Origin: a virus
Direction: 5' to 3' (one strand)
IMG/VR virus record: IMGVR_UViG_3300045996_001242
Span: 13,645-77,644 of that record
DNA: 64,000 nucleotides
Below, in pieces: positions 8,366-52,675 of this stretch. Numbering within the stretch: the stretch's first letter is position 1; the number at the start of each line of letters is the position of its first letter. The position numbers were made by a program, and so were the translations under genes. Under the pieces are notes generated by a model. The model did no database searches, was not told the origin of the DNA, and was given only the letters and a program-made list of their open reading frames with translations.

Positions 8366-9655
8366 ATGACCACCGAAGCCACGGAAACCAAAGACTACCT
8401 CGGGATGTCCGACGCCGACTTCCTGAACCTCAACGCGCCGGCCGAAGCGACGCCGGCTCCGGCTTCGGACGACAACAAGACCCAGGAGGCAGCTCCTGGG
8501 TCCGTTGCCGCCGAGGAACAGACCCAGAACGCCGAGCAGACCGCCGATGATGCTGCTGCCGAGACTGATGAGCAGAAGGCCGCCCGTGAAGCCGAAGAGG
8601 CCGCAAAAGCTGCCGCTCCTCCCGCTGATGCCGACCCCGCTGCTGAAAAGCCCGCTGGGGATCCTGCTCCTGGTTCCGCTGACGCAGCTGCTGCCGATCC
8701 GGCAAAAGTCGAAGCGGACAAGGCGGCGGCAGACGCTAAGGCAGACCCGAAAGCTGCGCCAGCGGCTGACGCCACCAAGAAGGACGAGCCCAAGGCGGAC
8801 GCAAAGCCGGTAGACCTCGAGGCCTTCTACAAGCAGGTCATGGCGCCGTTCAAAGCCAACGGCCGCACGATCGAGATCAAGTCGCCCGAGGAGGTCATCC
8901 GCCTCATGCAGATGGGCGCGGGGTTCGGCCGCAAGCTCCAGAGCCTGCAGCCGGCGCTCAAGACGCTGAAGATGCTCGAGAAAGCCGACCTGCTCGACGA
9001 GGGCAAGCTGTCGTTCCTCATCGACATTAACAACAAAAATCCCGACGCGATTAAGAAATTAATCAAGGATTCGGGTATCGACCCTCTTGACTTGAATATC
9101 GGAGATAATGCATCTTACACCCCGAAGAGCCACGCTGTCAGTGACAAGGAGATGGCGTTTCACTCCGCCCTGGAGGACGTGCAGTCCCTCCCAGGGGGTA
9201 ATGAGACGGTCCGAATTGTCAACCAGACGTGGGACAAGGAGAGCAAGGCTGCTCTCTGGGAATCGCCCGAGCTCCTCGGCGTCATCCAATCCCAGCGCGA
9301 GAATGGTATCTACGACCAGATCGCTGCTGAGATCGACCGCCAGAGACTTCTAGGCCAGATCCCCGCGAATACACCGTTCCTCAAAGCTTACAAGCTCGCC
9401 GGGGATCACTTGCAGGCCACCAATGGCTTCAAGCTCCCACAGGCGCAGGCGCCGATCGACAAGTCGGGGGATACCCCGCAGCCCCAAGTGATCGCGACTC
9501 GCACGGCAGCCCCGAAGCCCCAGGTGCAGAACGGTGAGAAGGCTGAAGCAGCAGCGTCGACGAAAGTCACGCCGAAGCGGGCAGCCAGTGCGCCCATCAA
9601 TCCGCTGCAGATGGCGGACGATGAGTTCCTGAAGCAATTCGAGGGTCGCCTCTAA
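8366..9655 (+). CDS. N4 gp57-like scaffold/head assembly protein
   Basis: Acidic Ala/Pro-rich N-terminus; APFKANGRTIEIKSPEEVIRLMQMG; immediately upstream of MCP. Confidence 0.75.
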   Translation: MTTEATETKDYLGMSDADFLNLNAPAEATPAPASDDNKTQEAAPGSVAAEEQTQNAEQTADDAAAETDEQKAAREAEEAAKAAAPPADADPAAEKPAGDPAPGSADAAAADPAKVEADKAAADAKADPKAAPAADATKKDEPKADAKPVDLEAFYKQVMAPFKANGRTIEIKSPEEVIRLMQMGAGFGRKLQSLQPALKTLKMLEKADLLDEGKLSFLIDINNKNPDAIKKLIKDSGIDPLDLNIGDNASYTPKSHAVSDKEMAFHSALEDVQSLPGGNETVRIVNQTWDKESKAALWESPELLGVIQSQRENGIYDQIAAEIDRQRLLGQIPANTPFLKAYKLAGDHLQATNGFKLPQAQAPIDKSGDTPQPQVIATRTAAPKPQVQNGEKAEAAASTKVTPKRAASAPINPLQMADDEFLKQFEGRL

Positions 9656-9693: not shown

Positions 9694-10893
9694 ATGTTGA
9701 ACTATAACGCTCCGACCCAGTCGGCCGCCGGTACGGCCTCCGACATCGAAGGCTCTGGCTCCAGCCAGATGCAGACCTTCTTCTGGCTGAAGAAGGCCCT
9801 CATCGAGGCCCGCAAAGAGCAGTATTTCATGCCGCTCGCCAATGCGGTCAATATGCCCAAGCACTTCGGCAAGACCATCAAGGTCTACGAGTACGTGCCC
9901 CTGCTCGACGACCGCAACATCAACGACATGGGCCTCGACGCGGCCGGTGCCACGATCGCGGACGGCAACCTCTACGGTTCGTCCAAGGACATCGGCACGA
10001 TCACGTCCAAGCTCCCGACCCTGACCGAGAGCGGCGGCCGTGTGAACCGCGTTGGCTTCACCCGTCTGACCCGTGAAGGCACGATCAGCAAGTTCGGCTT
10101 CTTCACCGAGTTCACCCAGGAGAGCCTGGACTTCGACTCGGACGCCGAGCTGATGGACCACCTGAGCCGCGAGCTCATGAACGGTGCCGTGCAGATCACC
10201 GAGGCTGTCCTCCAGAAGGACCTGCTCTCGAACGCCGGCGTGATCCTGTACGCAGGTGACGCGACGTCGAATGGCACCATCACTGGTGAAGGCGCCACGC
10301 CCTCCGTCGTCAACTACGACGACTTCGTGCGTCTCGACCAGCTGCTCACGGACAACCGTACTCCGAAGCAGACCAAGGTCATCACTGGTTCGCGCCTGGT
10401 CGACACCAAGACGCTGCCGGCGGCCCGCATCATGTTCATCGGTTCGGAGCTCGCTCCGCTGGTGAAGAAGCTGGTCGACTCGTTCAGCAACCCGGCGTTC
10501 ATCCCCGTGCAGCAGTACGGCGATGCCGGCACGATCCTCAACGGCGAGATCGGCACCGTCGATGCGTTCCGCATCATCCAGGTTCCGGAGATGCTGAACT
10601 GGGCTGGTGTTGGTGCCGCGGTTACGGACAACGACGGCTACCGCGAGACGGGCGACAACTACGACGTCTACCCGATGCTCGTGGTCGGCGACGACTCGTT
10701 CTCGACGATCGGCTTCCAGACCGATGGCAAGACGGTGAAGTTCTCGGTCATGACCAAGATGCCGGGCAAGGAAACCGCGGATCGCAACGATCCCTACGGC
10801 GAGACCGGCTTCAGCTCGATCAAGTGGTACTACGGTGTCCTGATCAAGCGGCCCGAGCGTATCGGCCTCATCAAGACCGTCGCCCCGATCTAA
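9694..10893 (+). CDS. Major capsid protein (N4 gp56-like)
   Basis: [41 protein letters not shown]; 399 aa; strongly biased codons. Confidence 0.93.
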
Positions 10894-32584: not shown

Positions 32585-34753
32585 TCAGGCTTCTCCCTGA
32601 TACTTCTTGGCGACGGTGATCATGATGGTCGAGTCTACCTCTTGTTCGTCCATCGGGCTCGCCAATTTCTTGTTGAACGCATGAACTTGATCACGCACGG
32701 CGGGGAGCTCCCAGCCGGAGTCGACCAGGCAGAGGGCATACTTGATCATCTGGTTGTTACGGTTGCCGTTGCCGATGCGTTCGGCGAACCAGCGTTCCAG
32801 ATTGTCGAGCGAGTCGAGCTGCTGGCTCTGCTTGCGCCGCTCTTCGTTCCGGCTCGTCTTGGGGATGAAGTAGGAGGCGTCGAGGAGCTTGCCCTCGTTG
32901 TAGTGGTAGGAGCCACCGTGGAACGACTCCGACTTCTTCTCCCGCTTGATGTAGCTCTCGTCGGTCCCGAAGGGGAGCCATGCGAAGATCCCTCGCATGA
33001 ACTCCTTGTATTCCTCGTTGTCGAGCTCGAGCCGGTAGTTGATCGGCAGCAGCATCCGGAAGCGATCGCGGACCTCGCCATTCTCGTCCGGCACCTGATG
33101 ACGCTTCGTCGTGTAGGTCAGGAACCTATAGTCCGCCATCAGCTCCTGAGCTGCCTGGAGGGAGATCCCTTCATCCACGTCGATGGCGATCATGTTGAAG
33201 CCGGCGATGACGTTCTCTTCGGCCCGGTGACCTTGCTTGAAGTGATGGTTGACCCAGTGCTTGCCCTCGGCTTGCGTGAGGACGTGCAGCTGGTCGAACG
33301 GCACCTCTTCGGTGAGATAGTCGTAGGCCCAGTGGTCCGAGTAGGAGACCACCATCTTCGATAGATCGGTCTCCTCGAGCGTCTCGCCCTTGAAGAACTC
33401 GATGCCGTCGACGAACGTCTTCTTGATGATGACGTTGTTCCGGTAGCCCCAGCCCATCGCCAGCATCATCATGTCGTTCCGCGGGCTCTGGGCCCTCGGG
33501 TAGAAGGGAAGTTTCTCGTGGATGTCGGCGTGGGTCTGCTCCATGCCGACCTGGGCGATGTACTTGGCGAGCTTCACGTAGGTCATCTCGCGGCTGAGGA
33601 TCTTCTGGAAGGCTGCCCCCGACTCCTCGACGAGCTTGATGGCTGCGTGGAGGTGGCTGAGCTCGATCAGCGTGGACCCATCGACGAAGGCGAAGGCGCC
33701 GGCGAGCTTGAGGGCCTTGGAGTGACGATGCTCCATCTCGGCCTTCTTGATCTCCTCGTGCTCGCCCATCTCGTGCGACAGCTTGAGGCAGTTGTCGTGG
33801 TATTCGATGAGCTCGATGCCGACGTCGTCGATGACTTCGACACGCCAGCCGAAGATCGCCGGATCCGCGAGCTTCTCGAACACCTGATACCACTTGTTCA
33901 CGGCCGCGCTGTTGGCCGGATCGATACGCATGGCGTACTTCTCCGCGGCCGAGAGCTGACCGCCGGCGAGCGACTTGGTGCCCATCCCGAAGATGCAGCG
34001 GCGGGCATAGCCGGTCTCGAGGAGCGAGTAGAACTCGGTCTCGGTCTGGCCGCCGTCGAAGAGCTTCGAGGGGGTGCCGAACAGCAGCATGTTGGTCGGG
34101 GTGGAGCCATCGAGCTCCTCGCCACGCTGGTTGTCGGAGGTGTTCTTCACCAACTTGATGTTGATGAGCCCGTTGTCATAGAGCTCGAGGAAGGCGGTGA
34201 GGACTTCCGTCTCGCGCAGGAGGTTCGAGCCGATCTCGTCGATCTGCATGTTGATCGATCCGGCGCCGGCGATGAGCAGCTTCTGACGCAGCTGCTTGAC
34301 GGCAGGGGTGGTGCCCGAGTCGAAGGTGAAGGGGTAGGCGCCGTAGGAGCGGTACTCCTTGTTGACCTTGTCGAATTCTTCCTGCTGGTCGGTGCCGTTG
34401 CGGGCCGCCCGGTTGTTGGCGAGGACCCACATGTTCTGCTCGGCGATGACCGGCAGGGTGTCCTCCATGAAGCGGGTTTTGAAGCCCTTGAGGAGCTCGT
34501 TCTCCATCACATGGATCGAGTGACCCTTGCCGAAGCCGGATGGAGCCAGGCCAAGCGCATAGACGTTGACCGGCATCTCGCCGCGGTCCTTGGTGATGAT
34601 CGTCGCACGCATGGTGCCGGCGATCTTGCCAATGAAGTAGGCGACCTCGGCCTGGAAGAAGCTACGGTCCTCCTGCTGGGTCTTGGCGCAGAGAACGTCG
34701 ACGGTCTCGGTGATGACCGGGTGGTGCTGAACGGTGGCGAGATCAGGCAACAT
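32585..34753 (-). CDS. N4 gp43-like primase/replication protein
   Basis: SGFGKG P-loop, DEIGSNL, C-terminal GNRNNQMIKYA primase C-terminal-like motif. Confidence 0.8.
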   Translation of the reverse strand: MLPDLATVQHHPVITETVDVLCAKTQQEDRSFFQAEVAYFIGKIAGTMRATIITKDRGEMPVNVYALGLAPSGFGKGHSIHVMENELLKGFKTRFMEDTLPVIAEQNMWVLANNRAARNGTDQQEEFDKVNKEYRSYGAYPFTFDSGTTPAVKQLRQKLLIAGAGSINMQIDEIGSNLLRETEVLTAFLELYDNGLINIKLVKNTSDNQRGEELDGSTPTNMLLFGTPSKLFDGGQTETEFYSLLETGYARRCIFGMGTKSLAGGQLSAAEKYAMRIDPANSAAVNKWYQVFEKLADPAIFGWRVEVIDDVGIELIEYHDNCLKLSHEMGEHEEIKKAEMEHRHSKALKLAGAFAFVDGSTLIELSHLHAAIKLVEESGAAFQKILSREMTYVKLAKYIAQVGMEQTHADIHEKLPFYPRAQSPRNDMMMLAMGWGYRNNVIIKKTFVDGIEFFKGETLEETDLSKMVVSYSDHWAYDYLTEEVPFDQLHVLTQAEGKHWVNHHFKQGHRAEENVIAGFNMIAIDVDEGISLQAAQELMADYRFLTYTTKRHQVPDENGEVRDRFRMLLPINYRLELDNEEYKEFMRGIFAWLPFGTDESYIKREKKSESFHGGSYHYNEGKLLDASYFIPKTSRNEERRKQSQQLDSLDNLERWFAERIGNGNRNNQMIKYALCLVDSGWELPAVRDQVHAFNKKLASPMDEQEVDSTIMITVAKKYQGEA

Positions 34754-35723
34754 AGTAGAGATCTTTCTGCTTGCAGGCGTTGAACGCCGGGCAGAACTCG
34801 CAGGCCCGCACCTCACCAGGGACGGCGATGACGGTGCCCTTACCCTTGCTCGCCAGGAAGGCGTGGGCTTCGGCTTTGTCATCGAAATTCTTGGTGGAGC
34901 GGCCCGAGGTTTTGCTCGCGTCGGCGTAGTATTTGTAGACGGTCTCCCCACGCCAAAGCTCCTTATCGGTGCATTGCGGGATCTGCTCGTCCGGGGCGTT
35001 CTGGTACTTCCTGAGCTCGCGCAGCTTGGCGATGATGAACTGCTCGGTGGCCTCGATCGAGGGCAGCTCGACCGGGTACTCGATCGCCTTGGTCTGCGGG
35101 TAGTCAGGGTCGTTACGGGCCCGGGCCTTCTGCCAGTCGGTGAAGATGAACTGGATGTAGATGTGGTCCGAGGTGATCAGCTCAGGGTTGAGCCAGCGAT
35201 AGATGCCGCCCTGCCAGGCGTAGTCGTCGTCCTTGCGACCCAGGAGGTAGGCGTAGACCGACGTCGACTTGGCATCGAACAGCCGGCCCTCGAGCACGAG
35301 GTCGTACTTGCCGCCGATCTTGTAGGTGACGCCGTCGACCTCGATCTCGCGGAAGGCCCGCTGCTCCATCCAGACCGGCACGATCGCCGGATTGGCGGCC
35401 ACCTGTTCAGGTGTCGGGTTGACGATGATGTTGTTGGCGATGTGGTCGGGGTAGCCGAGCTTCTTCATCGCCCTGGTTCCCGAGACGGTCCACGCCTTCT
35501 CGATCGAGTCGTGGATGGCAGTGCCCATCCGCGAGGCAAGAAAGGCGCTGATGTCGAGCTCGCGCTCGTCCTGGTTCACCCGCCGGCCGAGGACCAGCTG
35601 ACGAGTGCTCTTCAGCATGCTCGTCGCCGAGATGTAATTCGGCTCGTCGATGTAGTCGTATTCGTCGTGGAGGAGCCACACGGCGAGCGGCAGGCTGATG
35701 CCGTGGATGTTCGTCAGTTTCAT
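34743..35723 (-). CDS. PD-(D/E)XK Cas4-like nuclease (N4 gp42-like)
   Basis: GTAIHDSIE, GGKYDL..FDAKSTS, C-terminal CEFCPAFNAC. Confidence 0.8.
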   Translation of the reverse strand: MKLTNIHGISLPLAVWLLHDEYDYIDEPNYISATSMLKSTRQLVLGRRVNQDERELDISAFLASRMGTAIHDSIEKAWTVSGTRAMKKLGYPDHIANNIIVNPTPEQVAANPAIVPVWMEQRAFREIEVDGVTYKIGGKYDLVLEGRLFDAKSTSVYAYLLGRKDDDYAWQGGIYRWLNPELITSDHIYIQFIFTDWQKARARNDPDYPQTKAIEYPVELPSIEATEQFIIAKLRELRKYQNAPDEQIPQCTDKELWRGETVYKYYADASKTSGRSTKNFDDKAEAHAFLASKGKGTVIAVPGEVRACEFCPAFNACKQKDLYYVA

Positions 35724-35747: not shown

Positions 35748-35832
35748 TGGTGGAAAGCCGTGGTTCCGCCCCACTCCCCCGTAGGGATCGGATTTACAAT
35801 CCGATTGCCGAAACTACCGGCTTTGGCTTTCC
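35748..35832 (-). tRNA. Non-canonical tRNA-Tyr(GTA)-like cloverleaf
   Basis: GGAAAGCC/GGCTTTCC acceptor plus ACCA; GCCG/CGGC D stem; ATCGGA-TTGTAAA-TCCGAT anticodon arm; CCC/GGG variable arm; GTGG-GGCGGAA-CCAC T arm; 85 nt. Confidence 0.7.
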
Positions 35833-35908
35833 TGGATTTGGAGGGCACGAAGCCAGGGGGCGAAACGCCCCCTGACGTCATGGTGATTTTCTTGATAATC
35901 GGGTGGGA

Positions 35909-36460
35909 TTAAGGGTCCACCCAGGCGCCCCGTGGGAGAGGCAGGTTGAACTCTTTCTCGAGCTCTTCCTGCAGGAGCGCCAAAGCCCTCCAAGCCAAAG
36001 CAGCGCTCTCCCGGGTGTCCCCGTCGAAGCCGCCGCGGCCGGCGAGGTGCCTCATGATGCAGTCGGCATGGTCCATGGACTTGCCGCGGGAGTGGTGCAT
36101 CGGCTGGCCGGGATTATGCTTCTGGTTCCCGAGGTAGGAGATCCTGGCGACCTCGGCCAAGGCGTCCGGGAAATAGTCGAGGAGCCCAGCGGCCATCGGA
36201 TACTGTTTGCGCTCGGCGCTGGTCGTCTCGAGGAGACGCTTACGCTGCGGAGCTGCCGGGGTGACGAGCGTCGGAGGAGTAATCTCCCCCTGGTAAACCG
36301 GCTCCATGTTGGCATGGTTCAAGGTGTCCTGGATCAGCTGCTCATTGAGCACGTCCAGCTTGATCCCGAGCACCGGCGGCTCACGATCGCGGCCGCACTC
36401 CAGGCATTTCCCATTAGCCCAGATGCAGTGGCCGTTGCAGTCATCAGCCTTGGCCATCAC
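35909..36460 (-). CDS. DUF5664-like dATP/dGTP diphosphohydrolase-domain protein with N-terminal Cys cluster
   Basis: FPDALAEVARISYLGNQKH...DCIMRHL...AWRALALLQ. Confidence 0.7.
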   Translation of the reverse strand: MMAKADDCNGHCIWANGKCLECGRDREPPVLGIKLDVLNEQLIQDTLNHANMEPVYQGEITPPTLVTPAAPQRKRLLETTSAERKQYPMAAGLLDYFPDALAEVARISYLGNQKHNPGQPMHHSRGKSMDHADCIMRHLAGRGGFDGDTRESAALAWRALALLQEELEKEFNLPLPRGAWVDP

Positions 36461-44509: not shown

Positions 44510-44771
44510 CCGGTAGCTCCAGCGGGATGATCTCCAGCGTCGTCCGCGGGAAGTTCTGCGTGACCCGAATCGTGAACGGCATGCCGCCGGGGTAGTCGTT
44601 CTGCCATTCCATGAGCATGGTCTCTATGTTGCTCAGGATCTCGGGCACACGGGCCTCGTTGTGGAACTCCCTCGAGAGCGGGCCGAGGTTGAGGCGGGCT
44701 TGCTTCCGCCTCTCGTATGGGTCGACGTAGCCGGCCTCCTTGGCGAGTGCCAAATCCTCGTTGAAGCTCAT
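44499..44771 (-). CDS. Hypothetical protein
   Basis: AAGGAG RBS; ATGA overlap with the GcrA-like gene. Confidence 0.55.
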   Translation of the reverse strand: MSFNEDLALAKEAGYVDPYERRKQARLNLGPLSREFHNEARVPEILSNIETMLMEWQNDYPGGMPFTIRVTQNFPRTTLEIIPLELPDAA

Positions 44772-45364
44772 CGACTGGTTCTCCTTGTCTGGAATAGGCG
44801 GCCCCGATGGTTGGGGCAGTAGCGTGGGTGGCCTTCGGTCCCGTGGCCGCAGAAGAGGTGCCGTTCCCCTGGAGCTGGTTCGTTGATGCCCCAGTGGCAC
44901 TGGTTGGGGCCGAGCTCCCAGAGTGCGAGCTTGAGCGCCGTCCGGTCATAGGCGAGGTTGACCTCGGCGACCGGCACCTTGGCCGGCTGCTGGACCTCGC
45001 CCCGCACGTAGTTGAGCTTCTTGCGCTTGCGCTTCTCGAGGCGCGGAGCGTGCTGGCGAGGCAGCTTGTTGCCGTGCTCGTCTCGCAGCTGGCGCTGACC
45101 GGGCACACCACCTCCGCCCAGCGGATAGCTGATCCTGAGCTCGGGAACGCGGGTGTAGAAGCCCATGATCGAGTTGCGGGTCACCTGCGAGCCGGTGAGC
45201 TTGGTGAGGGTGACCGCAAGGGTCTTGGCGGAACAATTCTCGTTCCAGTTTTCGGTGATGAGCGCGACGCGATCTTCGCGGCTCAGGTCTGGCCAATGCA
45301 ACATCTGGTCATTCGATTTCTGGAGTGGGGGAGGCCCGGCAGAAACCGCCGGGTGGTTGATCAT
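44768..45364 (-). CDS. gcrA: GcrA-like transcriptional regulator
   Basis: N-terminal W..SAKTLA...VTRNSIMG HTH; C-terminal LWEL...CHWGINEP...FCG...YCPNH motif of the GcrA family. Confidence 0.75.
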   Translation of the reverse strand: MINHPAVSAGPPPLQKSNDQMLHWPDLSREDRVALITENWNENCSAKTLAVTLTKLTGSQVTRNSIMGFYTRVPELRISYPLGGGGVPGQRQLRDEHGNKLPRQHAPRLEKRKRKKLNYVRGEVQQPAKVPVAEVNLAYDRTALKLALWELGPNQCHWGINEPAPGERHLFCGHGTEGHPRYCPNHRGRLFQTRRTSR

Positions 45365-46575
45365 TCGTGTAGGTGGACGATGGTCCCGTGCGGCACTTCG
45401 GCCTTCCGGTTATTGAGGGCGACCCAGATGATCGGGACGTGCGCCAGGTCCGCGGGAAGCGGGTGCATGGGATCGCACTGCAGGTCCGAGAAGATGACGA
45501 CAGCGGTCGGCTTGTGCTCGATGATGTGCTCGCGCACGCAGACCAGCGAGGTGCCGCCGCGGCCGACGATCTTCACCTCGTCGACTTCGTCCTCCTCGAG
45601 GAAGACGTCTTCCTTCTGGATCTGCTCGTCGAACTGGACCATCGTCATCTTCTTCGGCTTGAAGTAGTCGTGGACGTACTTGAATTCCGAGTTGAATCTG
45701 ATGGCGTCGCCGTCCGAGATCGAGCCGGAGACGTCCTCATAGTAGATGACGTGGTCGAGGCCGTTGTACTCTTCCATGAGGTCCGGCAGGTACATGTCCT
45801 GGTAGCGCCGGTTGGGGCGGGCCCAGCTGTAGTCGTGGCCGCCCAGCTCGTTGAAGAACTGGAAGAGCGCCTTGTCCCAGTCGATCTTGGGAGCAAGGAA
45901 GCGCTTCAGCGTCGTCTCGATCTCTCCGGGGATGCTGCCGCCGGCGAGCTGTGCCTGGTGGGCGGCCGAGATGACGTTGTTGAGGACCTGATGCTGCAGC
46001 GCGGCTGCGACGTCGACCTCATCTGGCTCCACGAGGTCGCCGACAAGATCGCCGAGTCCGGTCTCCGGGTTGGTCAGCCAGGGAGTTGACCAGGGCATGG
46101 CGGGGGCATTGCCCTGGCCTTGGGCCTGGTGTTTGGCGATGAGCTCGTCGCGGATCCTGACGATGTCGTCATAGACGTCCTCGGTGACCCAGCCCTCGTA
46201 GTCGAAGTTGAACCAGGGCTTGAAGCCTTTGAAGCTCTTGCCCTCGCGGATCAGTGTGTTGTTGATCAGGATGTCGGCCGCGTAGTTCCAGATCTCATGC
46301 TCCCTGGATCCACAGCGCAGCATGTCAAGCCGCGCTGGGTGCCAGAGCTCATGGAGGAGGATGGTCTCGCGGACCTCCGGCAGCAGCGAGAGGAAGAACC
46401 GAGGGTTCCACCAGAGCGTCACGCCGTTGGTGCAGGCCGTCTGTATGTCCTCGACCCAGGAGAAGTTCATCGAGCACATCAGCGGGCCGAGGAAGGCGGC
46501 GTTGCTGTTGAGGAACACCTTGGTCTTGGTGCGGTCGAACTCACGTTCGAGCAGCGTGTAGTCGATCTCGGTCAT
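45361..46575 (-). CDS. Metallopeptidase plus vWA domain protein (N4 gp25-like)
   Basis: TACTNG, HELWH (HExxH), WNYAADILIN, DVSGS MIDAS, GRGGT, FSDL. Confidence 0.85.
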   Translation of the reverse strand: MTEIDYTLLEREFDRTKTKVFLNSNAAFLGPLMCSMNFSWVEDIQTACTNGVTLWWNPRFFLSLLPEVRETILLHELWHPARLDMLRCGSREHEIWNYAADILINNTLIREGKSFKGFKPWFNFDYEGWVTEDVYDDIVRIRDELIAKHQAQGQGNAPAMPWSTPWLTNPETGLGDLVGDLVEPDEVDVAAALQHQVLNNVISAAHQAQLAGGSIPGEIETTLKRFLAPKIDWDKALFQFFNELGGHDYSWARPNRRYQDMYLPDLMEEYNGLDHVIYYEDVSGSISDGDAIRFNSEFKYVHDYFKPKKMTMVQFDEQIQKEDVFLEEDEVDEVKIVGRGGTSLVCVREHIIEHKPTAVVIFSDLQCDPMHPLPADLAHVPIIWVALNNRKAEVPHGTIVHLHE

Positions 46576-48014
46576 TTCCTGTCCTTCTTCTTGAGCCAGG
46601 GCTTATGACCCTCGCCCGCCATGATGGTGCCGGCCGGGATGACCTCGTCGACGATGGTGGCGAGATCGAACTTCGTGATCTGGCGACGCACCTCATCGGG
46701 CCGCTTGTAGGCACTGGGCAGCTCCGAGATGTCGGGCTTGCCGCAGTAGAAGCGGACGTCGAGGCCCTGCGTCTCACGGTCGATGATCGTCTGCAGGTCT
46801 CGTGGCGAGATCCCTCGTGCGTCGGACGGGAACTCCTCGAGCAGGCGCTTCATGTGCGCGGTGCGCGAGAGGTTCCTGCCGGCGCCGTGTGGTGCGAAGC
46901 CCAGACCGTCGATCGGTCGGCGATCGTTCGGCATGGTGATCAGGATCGGCTGCCCCATGTTCAGTGGGATCAGCATCTGCCCGCAATCGTCATTGGCGTA
47001 GCCGTAGTAGGACGGCGTCGAGCCCTTGGCATGATAGAAGAGCCCGTCGGCCCGTCTGAAGACGAAGTTGTGCTCGTTCCAGAAGCGGCCGACGATGGCG
47101 TTGCCAAGTCGCTGCTGCATGGCGTCGTGGATCGCGTAGTGGTTGAGCTTGGTCCACTCGCGGACCAGCTGCAGGGCTTCCCAGTAGTCGTGGCCTTCCT
47201 GCGAGTTGGCATCGATCCAGGCTGCTGCCTTGGGCGTCCGTGGCGAGACGATCGAGGTGTGCTTCTCGGCCACAGCTTTACCACGGCGATAGACCTCGGC
47301 GCCGAAGCCTCGAGATCCATGGTGGGTGACGATCGCCAGCTGTCCGGTCGACTTGAGGTGGCCCACGAAAAAGAAGTGGTTGCCATCGCCCTGGGTCATA
47401 AATTGGCCAATGGCACGGTCCTCGAGCCCGGCAGTGAAGCGGTTTTCTGGCAGGCGGTCGATCAGCCCGGCGAACTGGGTGTCCCGGCCGTAGGCGGCCA
47501 ACTGCTGCCGCGGCTGGTTGCCGAAGTGCGTCGTCTGCATGGCGACGTCGAGGACCCGGCTGACGTCCATGTCCCGCTTGAAGACGGTGATGGCCATCGA
47601 GCAGCAGGCGTCCTCGGAGTGGAAGCCCGGATGGATCGCGTCTTTGGTTGCAACCACACCACCAACCGGGATGACGCCGGCAGCCGGACAGGCATCCGGC
47701 ATGACGGCGGCGTGCATCACGGTGGGGGTGCGGACGAGCTCGTCCATCTGCCGGACGACGCCGGCGTAGTTGACCACCTCGTCGTCGGTCTCGGCCTCGA
47801 GGAAGATGCCGAAGGGGATCGAGTTGGTGCGCAGCTGCAGCGCAGGGTCGAGTTCAGGCTCGCGAGGCTTGTAGTTGTTGGAGATGAACTCGCGGATCTC
47901 GTCGAGGGGGTACTTCCCCAAGACAGTGTTGCCGAATTCGATCGCCTCTTTGAACCAGGGGCCAGGCTTGAAGCCCCAGGCGATGAGCGTCTCGCCGGTG
48001 ATCTTATCGGTCAT
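46572..48014 (-). CDS. rtcB: RtcB family RNA ligase
   Basis: MPDAC, DACCSM, GDGNHF, HHGSRG, EHNF, HAKG, PHGAGR, ELPSAYK. Confidence 0.9.
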   Translation of the reverse strand: MTDKITGETLIAWGFKPGPWFKEAIEFGNTVLGKYPLDEIREFISNNYKPREPELDPALQLRTNSIPFGIFLEAETDDEVVNYAGVVRQMDELVRTPTVMHAAVMPDACPAAGVIPVGGVVATKDAIHPGFHSEDACCSMAITVFKRDMDVSRVLDVAMQTTHFGNQPRQQLAAYGRDTQFAGLIDRLPENRFTAGLEDRAIGQFMTQGDGNHFFFVGHLKSTGQLAIVTHHGSRGFGAEVYRRGKAVAEKHTSIVSPRTPKAAAWIDANSQEGHDYWEALQLVREWTKLNHYAIHDAMQQRLGNAIVGRFWNEHNFVFRRADGLFYHAKGSTPSYYGYANDDCGQMLIPLNMGQPILITMPNDRRPIDGLGFAPHGAGRNLSRTAHMKRLLEEFPSDARGISPRDLQTIIDRETQGLDVRFYCGKPDISELPSAYKRPDEVRRQITKFDLATIVDEVIPAGTIMAGEGHKPWLKKKDRK

Positions 48015-48232
48015 TGGGTTTCCTCTTTGATGACGGCCTCGACCTTGGCGATGGCAGCCTCGAGCGTGTCGAAGGTGCCCATCTGCGGGTTCACGGGCAG
48101 CCCAGCGTGATCGTTGACGATGAACCGTCCGTGGTAGACCTGGATGCTCAGGTGCGGGTGTTCGACGCACTGGTAGGTATCGTCGACCGAGTCATCCTCG
48201 GCGGGGGTGAAGACGTAGGTCGGCCGACTCAT
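48011..48232 (-). CDS. Hypothetical protein
   Basis: ATGA overlaps on both sides. Confidence 0.55.
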   Translation of the reverse strand: MSRPTYVFTPAEDDSVDDTYQCVEHPHLSIQVYHGRFIVNDHAGLPVNPQMGTFDTLEAAIAKVEAVIKEETQ

Positions 48233-49302
48233 GCTGCCACTGCGGTCGGAGTCGTGGTCGGCAGATCGTCGTGCAGATACCTCGAGATATCGACCAGGGA
48301 GCGCCGCCAGGCCGGGTGCAGCTTCAGGTCGGGCTTCTGAATCATCAGCCCGCGGAAGAAGATCACCCGCATCTCGGCGGTGAACTTGGCGATGTAGGTG
48401 GAGACCGCGTCGAAGCTGTCCCCATCGACGTGTTCGATCAGATGGGTGACCGTCGCCCAGCGGGTCGCGGCATCTTGCGGCACGTCGATCCCGTTCGGGT
48501 CCCTGACGATCTCCTGGAATCTCGGCAGAGTGGCATAGACCTTGGTGAAGGTGATGAACTCGACGGCAACGCCCGAGGTGATGGCGCCGGCATAGAGAGC
48601 TGCATCAGCTTCGACGACCTCCTGATCCTTGATCAGCTTGTTCATGAACTCCCAGGTCCGCGGCGAGCAGAAAGTCTTCTCGTTGTGGTCGGGCCGGAAG
48701 TCGTGTAAGGCGCCCTTTTTGTAGTTGAGGTAGGCGATGATGCGGCTGTCCCAGCGCTGGGGAAGGGCCACGTCCTCCATGAACTCCTGATGGTCGAGGA
48801 TCATCTCGAGGGTGATGAGGCGGCTCTGCATGGCCGTCGAGAGCGGATTGACGATCGCCCGGTCGGTGGTGAGGTTGCCGGCGGCGACGATCACCACGTT
48901 GGGGTGGAGCTTGGCCAAGCCGACCATCTTATCGAGGACGAGCTTATAGGCCGCGGCCTGCACCATCTTGCTGGCCGAGTTGAACTCGTCGAGGAAGATC
49001 ATCCAGCCCTGGTAACCGTCCGGGATCTTCGTGCCTTCAGTCGGGAAGGTATCGAACGGCGCGAAGGTGGCGGTGCCGTCCTCCTTGAACCTGGGGAGAC
49101 CGGTGAGATCCTCCGGCGCCGAGGTCGAAAGTCGATGATCGATCAGCTTGAGGCCGTACTCGTCGGCGATCGACTTGACGACGGCGCTCTTGCCGATGGC
49201 CGGCGAGCCCTGGAGGAAAGGAACCAGGCCCGCCAGCATGCAGCGGACGATGAACCTGCGTGCCTGGCGAGGTGTGACTTTGTAGGCGGAAATGCCCGAC
49301 AT
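48229..49302 (-). CDS. MoxR-like AAA+ ATPase (N4 gp24-like)
   Basis: GSPAIGKS, IFLDEFNSA, AAGN, SPRTWE. Confidence 0.88.
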   Translation of the reverse strand: MSGISAYKVTPRQARRFIVRCMLAGLVPFLQGSPAIGKSAVVKSIADEYGLKLIDHRLSTSAPEDLTGLPRFKEDGTATFAPFDTFPTEGTKIPDGYQGWMIFLDEFNSASKMVQAAAYKLVLDKMVGLAKLHPNVVIVAAGNLTTDRAIVNPLSTAMQSRLITLEMILDHQEFMEDVALPQRWDSRIIAYLNYKKGALHDFRPDHNEKTFCSPRTWEFMNKLIKDQEVVEADAALYAGAITSGVAVEFITFTKVYATLPRFQEIVRDPNGIDVPQDAATRWATVTHLIEHVDGDSFDAVSTYIAKFTAEMRVIFFRGLMIQKPDLKLHPAWRRSLVDISRYLHDDLPTTTPTAVAA

Positions 49303-51316: not shown

Positions 51317-51524
51317 TTCCCCACACGTTCCCCACATGAAATAGCGTGAACGAATCGCGATTATGAACGACTATCGTTCACAAAAAACCCTGAGTATCCG
51401 GGCGTTTCAAGGGAACCCCCACCGCTCATAACGGTCTGGTTGCAGGTTCGAGTCCTGCCGGGCCCACCAATCTTTTCAATCACTTAGTACCCCCATTGGT
51501 TTTCTTCCCACAAGTTTCCCCACA
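51317..51524 (+). repeat. Integrase arm-type direct repeats flanking the att core
   Basis: TTCCCCACA at 51317 and 51328; TTCCCACA at 51505 and TTCCCCACA at 51516; 11-bp spacing within each pair. Confidence 0.7.
51421..51469 (+). mobile_element. attP core: 3' half of a tRNA with CAT anticodon (probably tRNA-Ile2)
   Basis: ACCG-CTCATAA-CGGT anticodon arm, GCAGG-TTCGAGT-CCTGC T arm, CGGGCCC-A-CCA end; no 5' half upstream; adjacent to the integrase 3' end. Confidence 0.88.
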
Positions 51525-51526
51525 GT

Positions 51527-52675
51527 TTAGGCCGCTTTTTTAGGCCTAAAACCACGGGCAGCATTTTTCTGGAAATCTGGATGATGGTGGCCGTAAACGT
51601 CCTCCAGCACCTTCTGACTCATGCCGAGAAAACCGGCTGCCTCGTACATCGGGACGCCGTTGAGCATGAGCCAGGTTGCAGCCGTATGGCGCAGGGTGTG
51701 CGGCGTCGCATGCTCGAGGCCGGCCCCTTCGATGGCTGATGCGAAAGCGGTCTTCACGGAGGCGACAGGTTCACCGTTCCACTCGATGAAGAATTCGGGG
51801 ACCCGACCATCGGCATCGGGGCGAGCCCAGCGACGAAGAAACCCAAGCAAATGAGACGGCAGTCTCACCGGCGGCTGGCGCTTGTTGGTCTCCTTCTTGC
51901 CGACCTTGCGGCGATGAAAGACGCCATGCTCGAGATCGACCCAGGCGCGGTCCTTCTCGCGCTTCGGAGACGCAGCTGCGATAGCGGCGGCACGAGTGCC
52001 GGTATAGAGCCCGAGCAGGATGAAGCGAGCCAGGTGGCGAAGCGGCCGACGCTTGGTCGGGAACACCTCGCCGCGATGCGGTCCGCGGGTGATGGTCATC
52101 ATCTCGCGCTTCCGCCAGCAGTACCAGAGGAGCTGCGCTGCCTCGTCGCGAGTGAACCAGCGATCGCGAGCTTCGCCCTTGTCGGGTAGGTGGACGAAGA
52201 CGACGCCTTTGTGGAGGCCCTTCTTGGCGTGATGGATGATGGCGGCACGCAGGACCTCGAGATCCCGCCTGGCACCGCCAGGCGAGCCCCGGGACTTGGT
52301 GTACGCATAACAACTATCACCGTCGACCTCGGAGAGGGTCTTGCTCCCCCACCATTCGTTGATCCGTTTGAGTGAGCCCTGGTAGACACGCTGGTTCGCG
52401 TGCTTGGCACCCTTGTCTTCGTCGTAGATGAGCAACACATCGGCAATCGGAAGCTTCTCTATGTCCTGCTCGCGACGAGGAGCTCGGTATTGCGTCGTGA
52501 GGTACTCGGCGAGCTTGAGCTGCGCTGCGCCAATCTCAACCTCAGCGCATCCTGTGGGGTGGCGCTTGTCGCCGTCGATGATGATCCAGGTGCCGCTCTC
52601 TTTGAGCTTGCCGGTGGCTGGGTCTCGACGTTCCTTCCGGAACCAGAGATGCGGTCCTTTGCTTTTGCGCGGCAT
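51527..52675 (-). CDS. int: Tyrosine recombinase/integrase
   Basis: LYTGTR (R), KKETNKR (K), HTLRHTAATWL (H-x-x-R), FLGMS...VYGHH (Y). Confidence 0.93.
   Translation of the reverse strand: MPRKSKGPHLWFRKERRDPATGKLKESGTWIIIDGDKRHPTGCAEVEIGAAQLKLAEYLTTQYRAPRREQDIEKLPIADVLLIYDEDKGAKHANQRVYQGSLKRINEWWGSKTLSEVDGDSCYAYTKSRGSPGGARRDLEVLRAAIIHHAKKGLHKGVVFVHLPDKGEARDRWFTRDEAAQLLWYCWRKREMMTITRGPHRGEVFPTKRRPLRHLARFILLGLYTGTRAAAIAAASPKREKDRAWVDLEHGVFHRRKVGKKETNKRQPPVRLPSHLLGFLRRWARPDADGRVPEFFIEWNGEPVASVKTAFASAIEGAGLEHATPHTLRHTAATWLMLNGVPMYEAAGFLGMSQKVLEDVYGHHHPDFQKNAARGFRPKKAA

Follow-up and report, generated by a model that had tools for sequence, protein, structure and literature searches.

A phage family of tyrosine tRNA genes with an 8/4 architecture, including a copy with a rewritten elbow in an N4-like phage

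Transfer RNAs (tRNAs) of 8/4 layout, in which the acceptor stem has eight base pairs and the T stem four, are known as allo-tRNAs and as the tRNA-Ser and tRNA-His genes described, in the main text of Mukai et al. 2017, NAR (PMC5389517), from tRNA clusters of alpha-proteobacterial phages. The main text of that paper contains no 8/4 tRNA-Tyr, and a literature search outside its supplement also found no report of one. The tRNA-Tyr is itself a target of anti-phage defence: the PtuAB nucleases of Septu and retron-Eco7 cleave it in the variable loop and a phage tRNA-Tyr rescues infection (PMC13096335, PMC11555353), the cleavage resistance of the T5 tRNA-Tyr being ascribed to its distinctive variable loop (PMC13096335). 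Here we analyzed an 85-nucleotide (nt) element on the minus strand, at positions 35748-35832, of a 64-kb stretch of viral DNA (positions 13,645-77,644 of the 77.6-kb virus record IMGVR_UViG_3300045996_001242), which is referred to as the window. The element is a genuine, intact tRNA-Tyr-like gene under selection, with 8/4 geometry and a rewritten elbow. It has at least 27 further distinct homologues, making 28 distinct sequences in all from viral contigs and cultured phages.

The gene had been proposed in an earlier reading made from the sequence alone. The minus-strand sequence is exactly as given there, and the proposed cloverleaf is the minimum-energy fold, at -40.8 kcal/mol compared to -26.3 +/- 3.3 kcal/mol for shuffled sequences (z = -4.45, with equally good folds in 0 of 200 shuffles). 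It comprises four arms, an 8 + 4 = 12 base pair (bp) stack, a 7-nt anticodon loop UUGUAAA, and a discriminator A followed by CCA. The element belongs to the 8/4 class: its acceptor stem has 8 bp and its T stem 4, and nt 65 pairs with nt 8 (C8 with G65 in this copy) and not with nt 49. The folding program lengthens the anticodon stem in silico through U32/U33-A37/A38. In bacteria, A73, G1:C72 and G34-U35 form the identity set of tyrosyl-tRNA synthetase (TyrRS), and the window copy carries G34 U35 A36, A73 and G1:C72. TyrRS also contacts a long variable arm; an extra arm is present, and it measures just 12 nt in the window copy and 10-14 nt in the family. Of the conserved elbow set G18 G19 / T54 Psi55 C56 ... 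A58, the window copy keeps only the equivalents of G19 and C56.

To establish the geometry, an alignment of 27 sequences (A1, the window copy and 26 homologues) was analyzed in the 8/4 structure. Standard pairs were formed in 98.9% of pair cells, compared to 78.2% after shuffling and 39-53% when the partners were slid, and the covariation score was 0.613 vs 0.188. Both-sided, compensatory changes were found in 15 of the 24 pairs. In the acceptor stem they affected 7 of 8 pairs across the family; 3 of 4 pairs covaried in the D stem and 5 of 6 in the anticodon stem, where the sixth, a 27:43-like pair, occurs as GU, AU, GC or CG. The 8:65 pair was formed in 25 of 27 sequences (UA in 19, AU in 2, CG in 2 and GC in 2). 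In contrast, just 2 of 27 formed the canonical 49:65 pair, since the A at nt 49 faces another A nearly throughout. Combined, these two counts establish the 8/4 geometry, and no family member was left out for having a 7/5 layout. The variable region of 10-14 nt contains a stem of 2-3 bp in which one C:G pair is invariant and a Y:G pair is kept. Furthermore, a covariance model (R2, from alignment A2) made from 27 homologues of other phages, with the window sequence left out, had its sole match in the window at the element (88.7 bits, E 6e-25). As a model made without the window matches just this locus, a chance origin is excluded.

Conservation of the decoding parts was complete. G1:C72, A73, CCA and the anticodon GUA are invariant in 28/28 members, and so is the anticodon-loop series U33-G34-U35-A36-A37-A38; position 32 is a C in 27 members. 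These data bear out the observation of the sequence-only reading and part of its interpretation. The 8-bp acceptor, 4-bp T and 6-bp anticodon stems are upheld by the fold, the acceptor and anticodon stems by family covariation too, and selection, as opposed to decay, is upheld by homologues with compensatory changes. The D loop (GUAGUUU) lacks the canonical GG and the T loop is GGCGGAA, as described. One statement needed refinement: there is indeed no free U8, but nt 8 has been recruited into the acceptor stem, being a U paired to nt 65 in most members. Of the TyrRS identity elements that had been listed, GUA, G1:C72, A73 and CCA are kept, together with an extra arm of 12 nt.

The element was compared with the tRNA classes it resembles. 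Its family shares with the 8/4 tRNAs in the main text of PMC5389517 the 12-bp branch split 8/4, the occurrence in tRNA clusters of phages, notably alpha-proteobacterial ones, and a tendency to escape ordinary finders. Unlike the tRNAs described there, the Tyr family has a tyrosine identity (GUA, A73, G1:C72), a variable region of 10-14 nt in place of a long arm of the seryl-tRNA synthetase (SerRS) type, a 4-bp D stem with a 7-8-nt loop, an invariant AAA linker and, in about half of its members, including the window copy, a T loop without TTC. It is therefore not an allo-tRNA in the sense of Ser identity, given so short a variable region, the invariant GUA and a combination of A73 and G1:C72 that suits Tyr. 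Canonical class II tRNA-Tyr (RF00005) has in common with the family the loop YUGUAAA, G1:C72, A73, CCA and an extra arm, but it is 7/5 rather than 8/4, has a free U8 and a much longer extra arm; the window copy in addition lacks G18 and T54-Psi55 and does not match RF00005. Like the family, tRNA-Sec and selC* tRNA-Cys (8/5, 9/4 and modified 8/4) have a lengthened acceptor stem and an anticodon stem of 6 bp; they differ in that their branch is of 13 bp or bulged, their D stem has 6 bp and a loop of 4 nt, their variable arm is long, and their anticodons and identities are others. As 8/4 tRNAs are already known in phages for Ser and His, the Tyr version is a new variant of this architecture.

Family members were collected by pattern scans and by blastn. 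A scan of viral contigs with a 15-mer from the D arm returned one true homologue amid chance matches (L100, continued in L140); its acceptor stem, wholly different from that of the window copy, pairs throughout, and it retains the anticodon GUA. T-arm and general-pattern scans gave dozens more homologues. The general Tyr pattern is not specific for 8/4 and also drew canonical 7/5 tRNA-Tyr, and matches were sorted by the pair formed, 8:65 or 49:65; among the general-pattern matches listed, 35 of 125 viral ones were family members, vs 0 of 113 bacterial ones. Unannotated copies in cultured phages were found by blastn, in Rhodobacter phage RcXuper and in 18 Caulobacter phiCbK-group records, namely phiCbK and 17 others. 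The hosts named so far for phages of the family are alpha-proteobacteria (Caulobacter, Rhodobacter). As in the window phage, in a second GC-rich (pro)virus fragment, of 22.9 kb, the 8/4 tRNA-Tyr (L205:1952-2034, plus strand) is the sole detectable tRNA and stands alone in an intergenic gap. No match to the family model was obtained among 151 Pseudomonadota genomes with 30 candidates scored per genome, a weak negative because the pattern matches considered were incomplete and few candidates were scored in each genome. The family looks phage-specific.

Other scans were unproductive. A first pattern, combining the anticodon loop, GGCGGAA and ACCA, returned six loci, all of them chance matches that do not fold, and a D-loop/anticodon pattern gave mostly chance matches in AT-rich DNA. 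Scanning metagenomes for the T-arm variant of the window copy recovered just a D-armless RNA of one phage and no close relative of the window copy. This RNA (L207:3808-3903, plus strand; identical in L509, L510 and L511) is encoded by a GUA tRNA-like gene in the tRNA array of a 205-kb phage; its acceptor and T stems are of 8 and 4 bp, its T loop is GGCGGAA, and in place of a D arm there is a long-range helix around the anticodon hairpin, besides an extra hairpin. When the window element was compared by blastn with GenBank phages, the only matches were of its anticodon arm to ordinary tRNA-Tyr. Parts of the region occur in two soil-metagenome DNA runs, whose short contigs gave no further information.

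The elbow, where D and T loops meet, is rewritten in a coordinated manner. T loops in the family are TTCGAGT-like, ATCGAAA-like, AGCGTAA or, in the window copy, GGCGGAA. Among the 28 members, all 15 with G55 have a UAG (AG) D loop and all 13 with U55 have GG. Since G55 always comes with an AG D loop, the change points to a coordinated alternative elbow and not to decay. The same association was seen in a wider survey of 836 distinct phage tRNAs called by ARAGORN in fetched viral loci: U55 was accompanied by a GG D loop in 760 of 769 cases, and in 24 of 31 cases G55 came with an AG that replaced GG. The surveyed phage tRNAs with G55 include those for Ile, Val, Met, Phe, Glu, Leu, His, Gly, Ala, Arg and Cys, and a tRNA-Phe (L233) as well as further tRNA-like genes share the exact loop of the window copy, GGCGGAA. 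From these sequence associations, an A18:G55 contact seems to recur in phage tRNAs as an alternative to G18:U55; a literature search found no description of an A18/G55 elbow. Over loci L082-L383, T loops with G55 (AGCGTAA, AGCGTTA, TGCGAAT, GGCGGAA) made up ~3-4% of the ARAGORN-called phage tRNAs, examples being L188:2561-2634, L210:9177-9250 and L233:373-448.

Most members are invisible to standard tRNA finders. Neither the window nor the complete 77.6-kb genome yielded a tRNA gene with ARAGORN, which missed the element even at 80% stringency; Rfam gave no match at the element at the gathering score and no tRNA match at E <= 10 on a 301-base region around it, and RF00005 at E <= 0.01 over the genome did not match it either. 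The prediction that standard scanners would miss this gene thus held, and by the yardstick of RF00005 or ARAGORN the element is not a tRNA. When ARAGORN was run on the 28 family members, 24 were missed and 4 were called "tRNA-Tyr(gta)"; the four have a canonical elbow together with an 8-nt D loop. The failure of the scanners is mainly due to the 8/4 layout.

In phages with tRNA arrays, the 8/4 gene usually occupies the place of tRNA-Tyr. In L100 it lies inside an array, between tRNA-Leu and tRNA-Gly. In L206, 25 tRNAs called by ARAGORN cover 19 amino acids, Tyr alone being missing, and arrays L199 (20 tRNAs), L200 (26), L191 (21) and L231 (24) likewise have no other tRNA-Tyr detected by ARAGORN. 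The same program found no tRNA-Tyr in the three tRNA-bearing regions of phiCbK that were scanned, and family model R1, run on phiCbK and on the complete 360-kb phage G007, gave no canonical-Tyr-like match beside the 8/4 gene. A canonical tRNA-Tyr was present in 1 of 10 arrays with the 8/4 gene vs 7 of 9 without it (Fisher p = 0.005), the latter having been drawn by the same T-arm pattern. Another phage tRNA array, L195, contains by ARAGORN a tmRNA gene (9249-9607, minus strand) and a CTA, amber-reading, tRNA (10626-10701, minus strand).

Table 1. Coordinates of the 8/4 tRNA-Tyr gene, its parts and its surroundings in the window, and of two copies in cultured phages
Feature	Position	Strand	Description or evidence
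Complete non-canonical 8/4 tRNA-Tyr(GUA) gene	35748..35832	-	85 nt, CCA encoded; sequence, fold, model R2
Acceptor stem, 5' strand (nt 1-8)	35825..35832	-	Perfect pairing with 35752-35759 in the fold
AAA linker joining acceptor and D stems	35822..35824	-	At the place of U8/N9; invariant in 28/28 members
D arm	35807..35821	-	4-bp stem GCCG/CGGC; loop GTAGTTT (AG, not G18G19)
Anticodon arm	35787..35805	-	6-bp stem; loop TTGTAAA; anticodon GTA at 35795-35797
Variable region	35775..35786	-	12 nt; mini-stem of 2-3 bp; ends C...GGA conserved
T arm	35760..35774	-	4-bp stem GTGG/CCAC; loop GGCGGAA (G55; without TTC)
Acceptor stem, 3' strand, with discriminator and CCA	35748..35759	-	3' strand 35752-35759; discriminator A 35751; CCA 35748-35750
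Downstream gene, N4 gp42-like PD-(D/E)XK exonuclease	34743..35723	-	phrog_2139, E 1.5e-132
GC-rich hairpin	35854..35874	-	9-bp stem, TTT loop, no T tail; 21 nt upstream of the tRNA
Near-palindrome ATTATC-N2-GAAAAT	35886..35899	-	Right after the stop of the upstream gene; ~55 nt upstream of the tRNA
Upstream gene, dATP/dGTP diphosphohydrolase N-terminal domain	35909..36460	-	PF18909, 36 bits; phrog_27780
GcrA cell-cycle-regulator homologue	44768-45364	-	PF07750
RtcB RNA ligase	46572..48170	-	PF01139, 100 bits; 11 kb from the tRNA
tRNA-Met(CAT)-like piece	51396-51472	+	RF00005, 20 bits, below cut-off
Tyrosine integrase	51527-52675	-	PF00589; adjoins the tRNA-Met-like piece
Unannotated 8/4 tRNA-Tyr(GUA), Rhodobacter phage RcXuper	OP186293.1:8140-8224 (L271:3995-4079)		Inside tRNA cluster
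Unannotated 8/4 tRNA-Tyr(GUA), Caulobacter phage phiCbK	NC_019405.1:51541-51625 (L505:3493-3577)		Inside tRNA cluster

The window copy has a different setting (Table 1). The window carries the replication module of an N4-like podovirus (DNA polymerase, primase, Dda-like helicase, SSB, Sak4 and the gp42-like exonuclease) and N4-like phages are its closest matches at the DNA level. The gap between the two neighbouring genes, both of them on the strand of the element, measures 185 nt, and no sigma-70-like promoter or terminator of the element's own was found on this strand. Hairpins comparable to the one upstream of the tRNA occupy the same intergenic region in relatives, and an AT-rich motif similar to the near-palindrome, again with hairpins, is found at the equivalent site in L001, L003 and L004. 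From its sequence and position, the near-palindrome may be a phage promoter or operator driving the tRNA and the exonuclease gene. The domain found in the upstream gene is that of a kind of enzyme used by phages that alter nucleotide pools.

The 8/4 tRNA-Tyr is the only tRNA gene of the window phage, and the relatives examined lack it at this site. In a synteny sample of 80 N4-like loci gathered via the exonuclease, with protein identity up to 87%, the element was found upstream of the exonuclease gene in 0 of 80, and no tRNA of any kind was seen there in the first 60 loci scanned. In four complete N4-like relatives it is nowhere in the genome; among relatives, the lone tRNA of G002 is a Ser(GCU), and ARAGORN assigned five of the six RF00005 matches of G004 to Pro, Asn, Arg, Leu and Gln, none of them Tyr. 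Being the sole tRNA gene here and absent from the four complete relatives, the gene was probably acquired horizontally. The tRNA-Met(CAT)-like piece has a good T arm, a 3' acceptor strand and CCA, with a poor 5' half. It adjoins the integrase and probably represents the attP core of a temperate N4-like phage; the closely related G001 has been classed as a provirus. The GcrA family is typical of alpha-proteobacteria and their phages, and the homologue found here hints at an alpha-proteobacterial host. The RtcB ligase may be a tRNA-repair partner in the same phage as the lone tRNA-Tyr. Its gene is flanked by genes for a DUF2201 metallopeptidase/vWA-like protein (45361-46575, minus strand) and an AAA ATPase (48229-49302, minus strand).

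Taken together, these data make it probable that the element is a translating, tyrosine-decoding tRNA of unusual architecture, perhaps one that sustains Tyr decoding when host tRNA-Tyr is under attack. In this molecule, the stack of acceptor and T arms stays at 12 bp, divided 8 + 4 instead of 7 + 5 through the pairing of nt 8 with nt 65; the AAA linker stands in for U8/N9, the variable arm is cut to 10-14 nt and, in the window copy, A18-G19 with G55-C56 would replace G18-G19 with U55-C56 at the elbow. The RNA would be co-transcribed with the genes of the replication module, cut down to its encoded CCA by RNase P and 3' exonucleases, charged by host TyrRS via G34-U35, A73 and G1:C72, and used on the ribosome, for which the 8/4 split would preserve the required 12-bp stack. 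In bacteria, both Tyr codons are read by a single isoacceptor, so that a lone tRNA-Tyr cannot serve to compensate for rare codons; the phage would have to gain from a larger or more robust overall supply of tRNA-Tyr.

The likeliest benefit would be to keep Tyr decoding going when PtuAB-type nucleases (Septu or retron-Eco7) deplete host tRNA-Tyr, and the altered shape and short variable arm might make the 8/4 tRNA-Tyr a poor nuclease substrate. A phage-encoded tRNA-Tyr is what T5, SP15 and T6 use to counter retron-Eco7 and Septu PtuAB (PMC11555353, PMC13096335), and these tRNAs are a plausible functional analogue for a phage with tRNA-Tyr as its only tRNA. Those tRNAs, however, are canonical 7/5 and their rescue is proven experimentally, whereas the window element has a changed architecture and is known from sequence alone. 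By this analogy, a combined role in supply and evasion would fit the reshaped body, the minimal variable arm and the RtcB gene of the same phage; we put it forward tentatively, as a possibility with somewhat less than even chances. Also speculative, and on balance unlikely, is a "stealth" tRNA-Tyr that would be accepted by host TyrRS, EF-Tu and the ribosome and would go unseen by PtuAB-type nucleases or sensors that read the canonical shape. Alpha-proteobacterial phages would then have remade the whole body of tRNA-Tyr by splitting the stack 8/4, bringing in the AAA linker, minimizing the variable arm and, within one branch, adopting the A18:G55 elbow, and the N4-like phage of the window would have obtained the gene by horizontal transfer.

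Several observations weigh against the decoding role or its anti-defence benefit, or limit their reach. The window copy is the most divergent member, being the only one with U32 and the only one of the 8/4 family whose T loop is GGCGGAA, and it is consequently the least certain of the members to be fully active. Its sequence is listed in soil-metagenome DNA runs only and in no RNA run. Both RcXuper, where the 8/4 gene abuts an annotated canonical tRNA-Tyr, and L189 have the two forms, which may thus not be simply redundant or fully equivalent. As the array loci are partial, the statement that no other tRNA-Tyr is present is firm only for the complete genomes G007 and phiCbK. Breadth and host range of the family are biased because the search for members relied on patterns taken from the window, and the T stem GTGG/CCAC is invariant merely by design, the search patterns having fixed it. 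Finally, we infer the anti-defence benefit, no PtuAB-type system or host being linked to the window phage.

The sequence-only reading had named a non-ribosomal aminoacyl donor and a decoy among the possibilities. A donor or a pure decoy is not supported as the leading explanation, as in other phages the gene fills the Tyr slot of ordinary arrays; the UGUAAA loop of all 28 members and the ARAGORN calls of the four canonical-elbow members further weaken such roles. An ordinary decoding role is favoured over these exotic non-ribosomal ones, and a role against tRNA-targeting defences is possible. The best surviving competitor is a tRNA mimic that does not decode and acts as a decoy or sponge for a tRNA-Tyr-directed nuclease, a tRNA-sensing defence or another tRNA-binding host factor. 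The altered shape and elbow, the lone gene in an N4-like phage and the coexistence with canonical tRNA-Tyr in RcXuper and L189 would suit it, and an overexpressed phage tRNA-Tyr partly suppresses the degradation of host tRNA-Tyr by Septu (PMC13096335). However, the features needed for translation are all conserved (12-bp stack, 7-nt loop with U33 and A37, A73 and CCA), the arrays whose Tyr slot it fills otherwise cover 19 amino acids, and a pure decoy would not need the exact GUA loop in 28/28 members plus G1:C72 and A73. We consider it improbable.

Recoding, in which some amino acid different from Tyr would be attached to the tRNA, for instance through SerRS in the manner of allo-tRNAs, and the tRNA would change the meaning of UAY during infection, is very improbable. 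It draws on the 8/4 geometry shared with allo-tRNAs, which are serylated despite non-Ser anticodons (PMC5389517, PMC7609411), and on the canonical tRNA-Tyr found alongside in two phages. Yet a variable region of 10-14 nt with a 2-3-bp stem is far below the long arm required by SerRS, A73, G1:C72 and G34-U35 are the bacterial TyrRS set, and the arrays are otherwise without any tRNA-Tyr. The earlier suggestion of an allo-tRNA-like species is thus right for the geometry and wrong for the arm, which is too short for SerRS-type identity. Equally slight are the chances that the element only punctuates RNA processing, being cut by RNase P and 3' nucleases out of a polycistronic replication transcript and having no further role once excised. 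Its position between same-strand genes in a 185-nt gap with no sigma-70-like promoter or terminator of its own speaks for this, but processing has no need of the conserved anticodon loop and identity nucleotides, pure tRNA arrays contain this gene too, and close relatives manage the same gene junction without the element. That the element is a pseudogene in decay, part of a captured host tRNA, an att-site remnant or a set of chance hairpins is scarcely credible: scanners do reject it and the phage does have a tRNA-derived attP elsewhere, but the gene is full length with every stem perfect and all family invariants kept, an independent model matches it at E 6e-25, compensatory changes run through the family, and the tRNA-Met attP-like piece is a separate locus at 51.4 kb.

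With a tyrosine-decoding tRNA as the preferred reading, these results extend the 8/4 architecture to a third or fourth amino-acid identity. They also reveal a family of tyrosine tRNA genes invisible to routine annotation, unannotated in phiCbK-group phages and RcXuper, so that tRNA inventories and "missing Tyr" gaps are wrong for these phages. The natural covariation indicates that the near-universal G18-U55 contact of the elbow is replaceable by A18-G55, a swap of interest for tRNA structure and for the design of orthogonal tRNA-Tyr scaffolds. Septu and retron-Eco7 are proven to target tRNA-Tyr, and a reshaped, lone tRNA-Tyr together with RtcB offers a testable case of architectural evasion, and phiCbK on Caulobacter and RcXuper on Rhodobacter provide cultured systems for this question. 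If the tRNA does escape nucleases or sensors by its shape, it would represent immune evasion by tRNA architecture, and not by point mutation of the anticodon loop or by overexpression.

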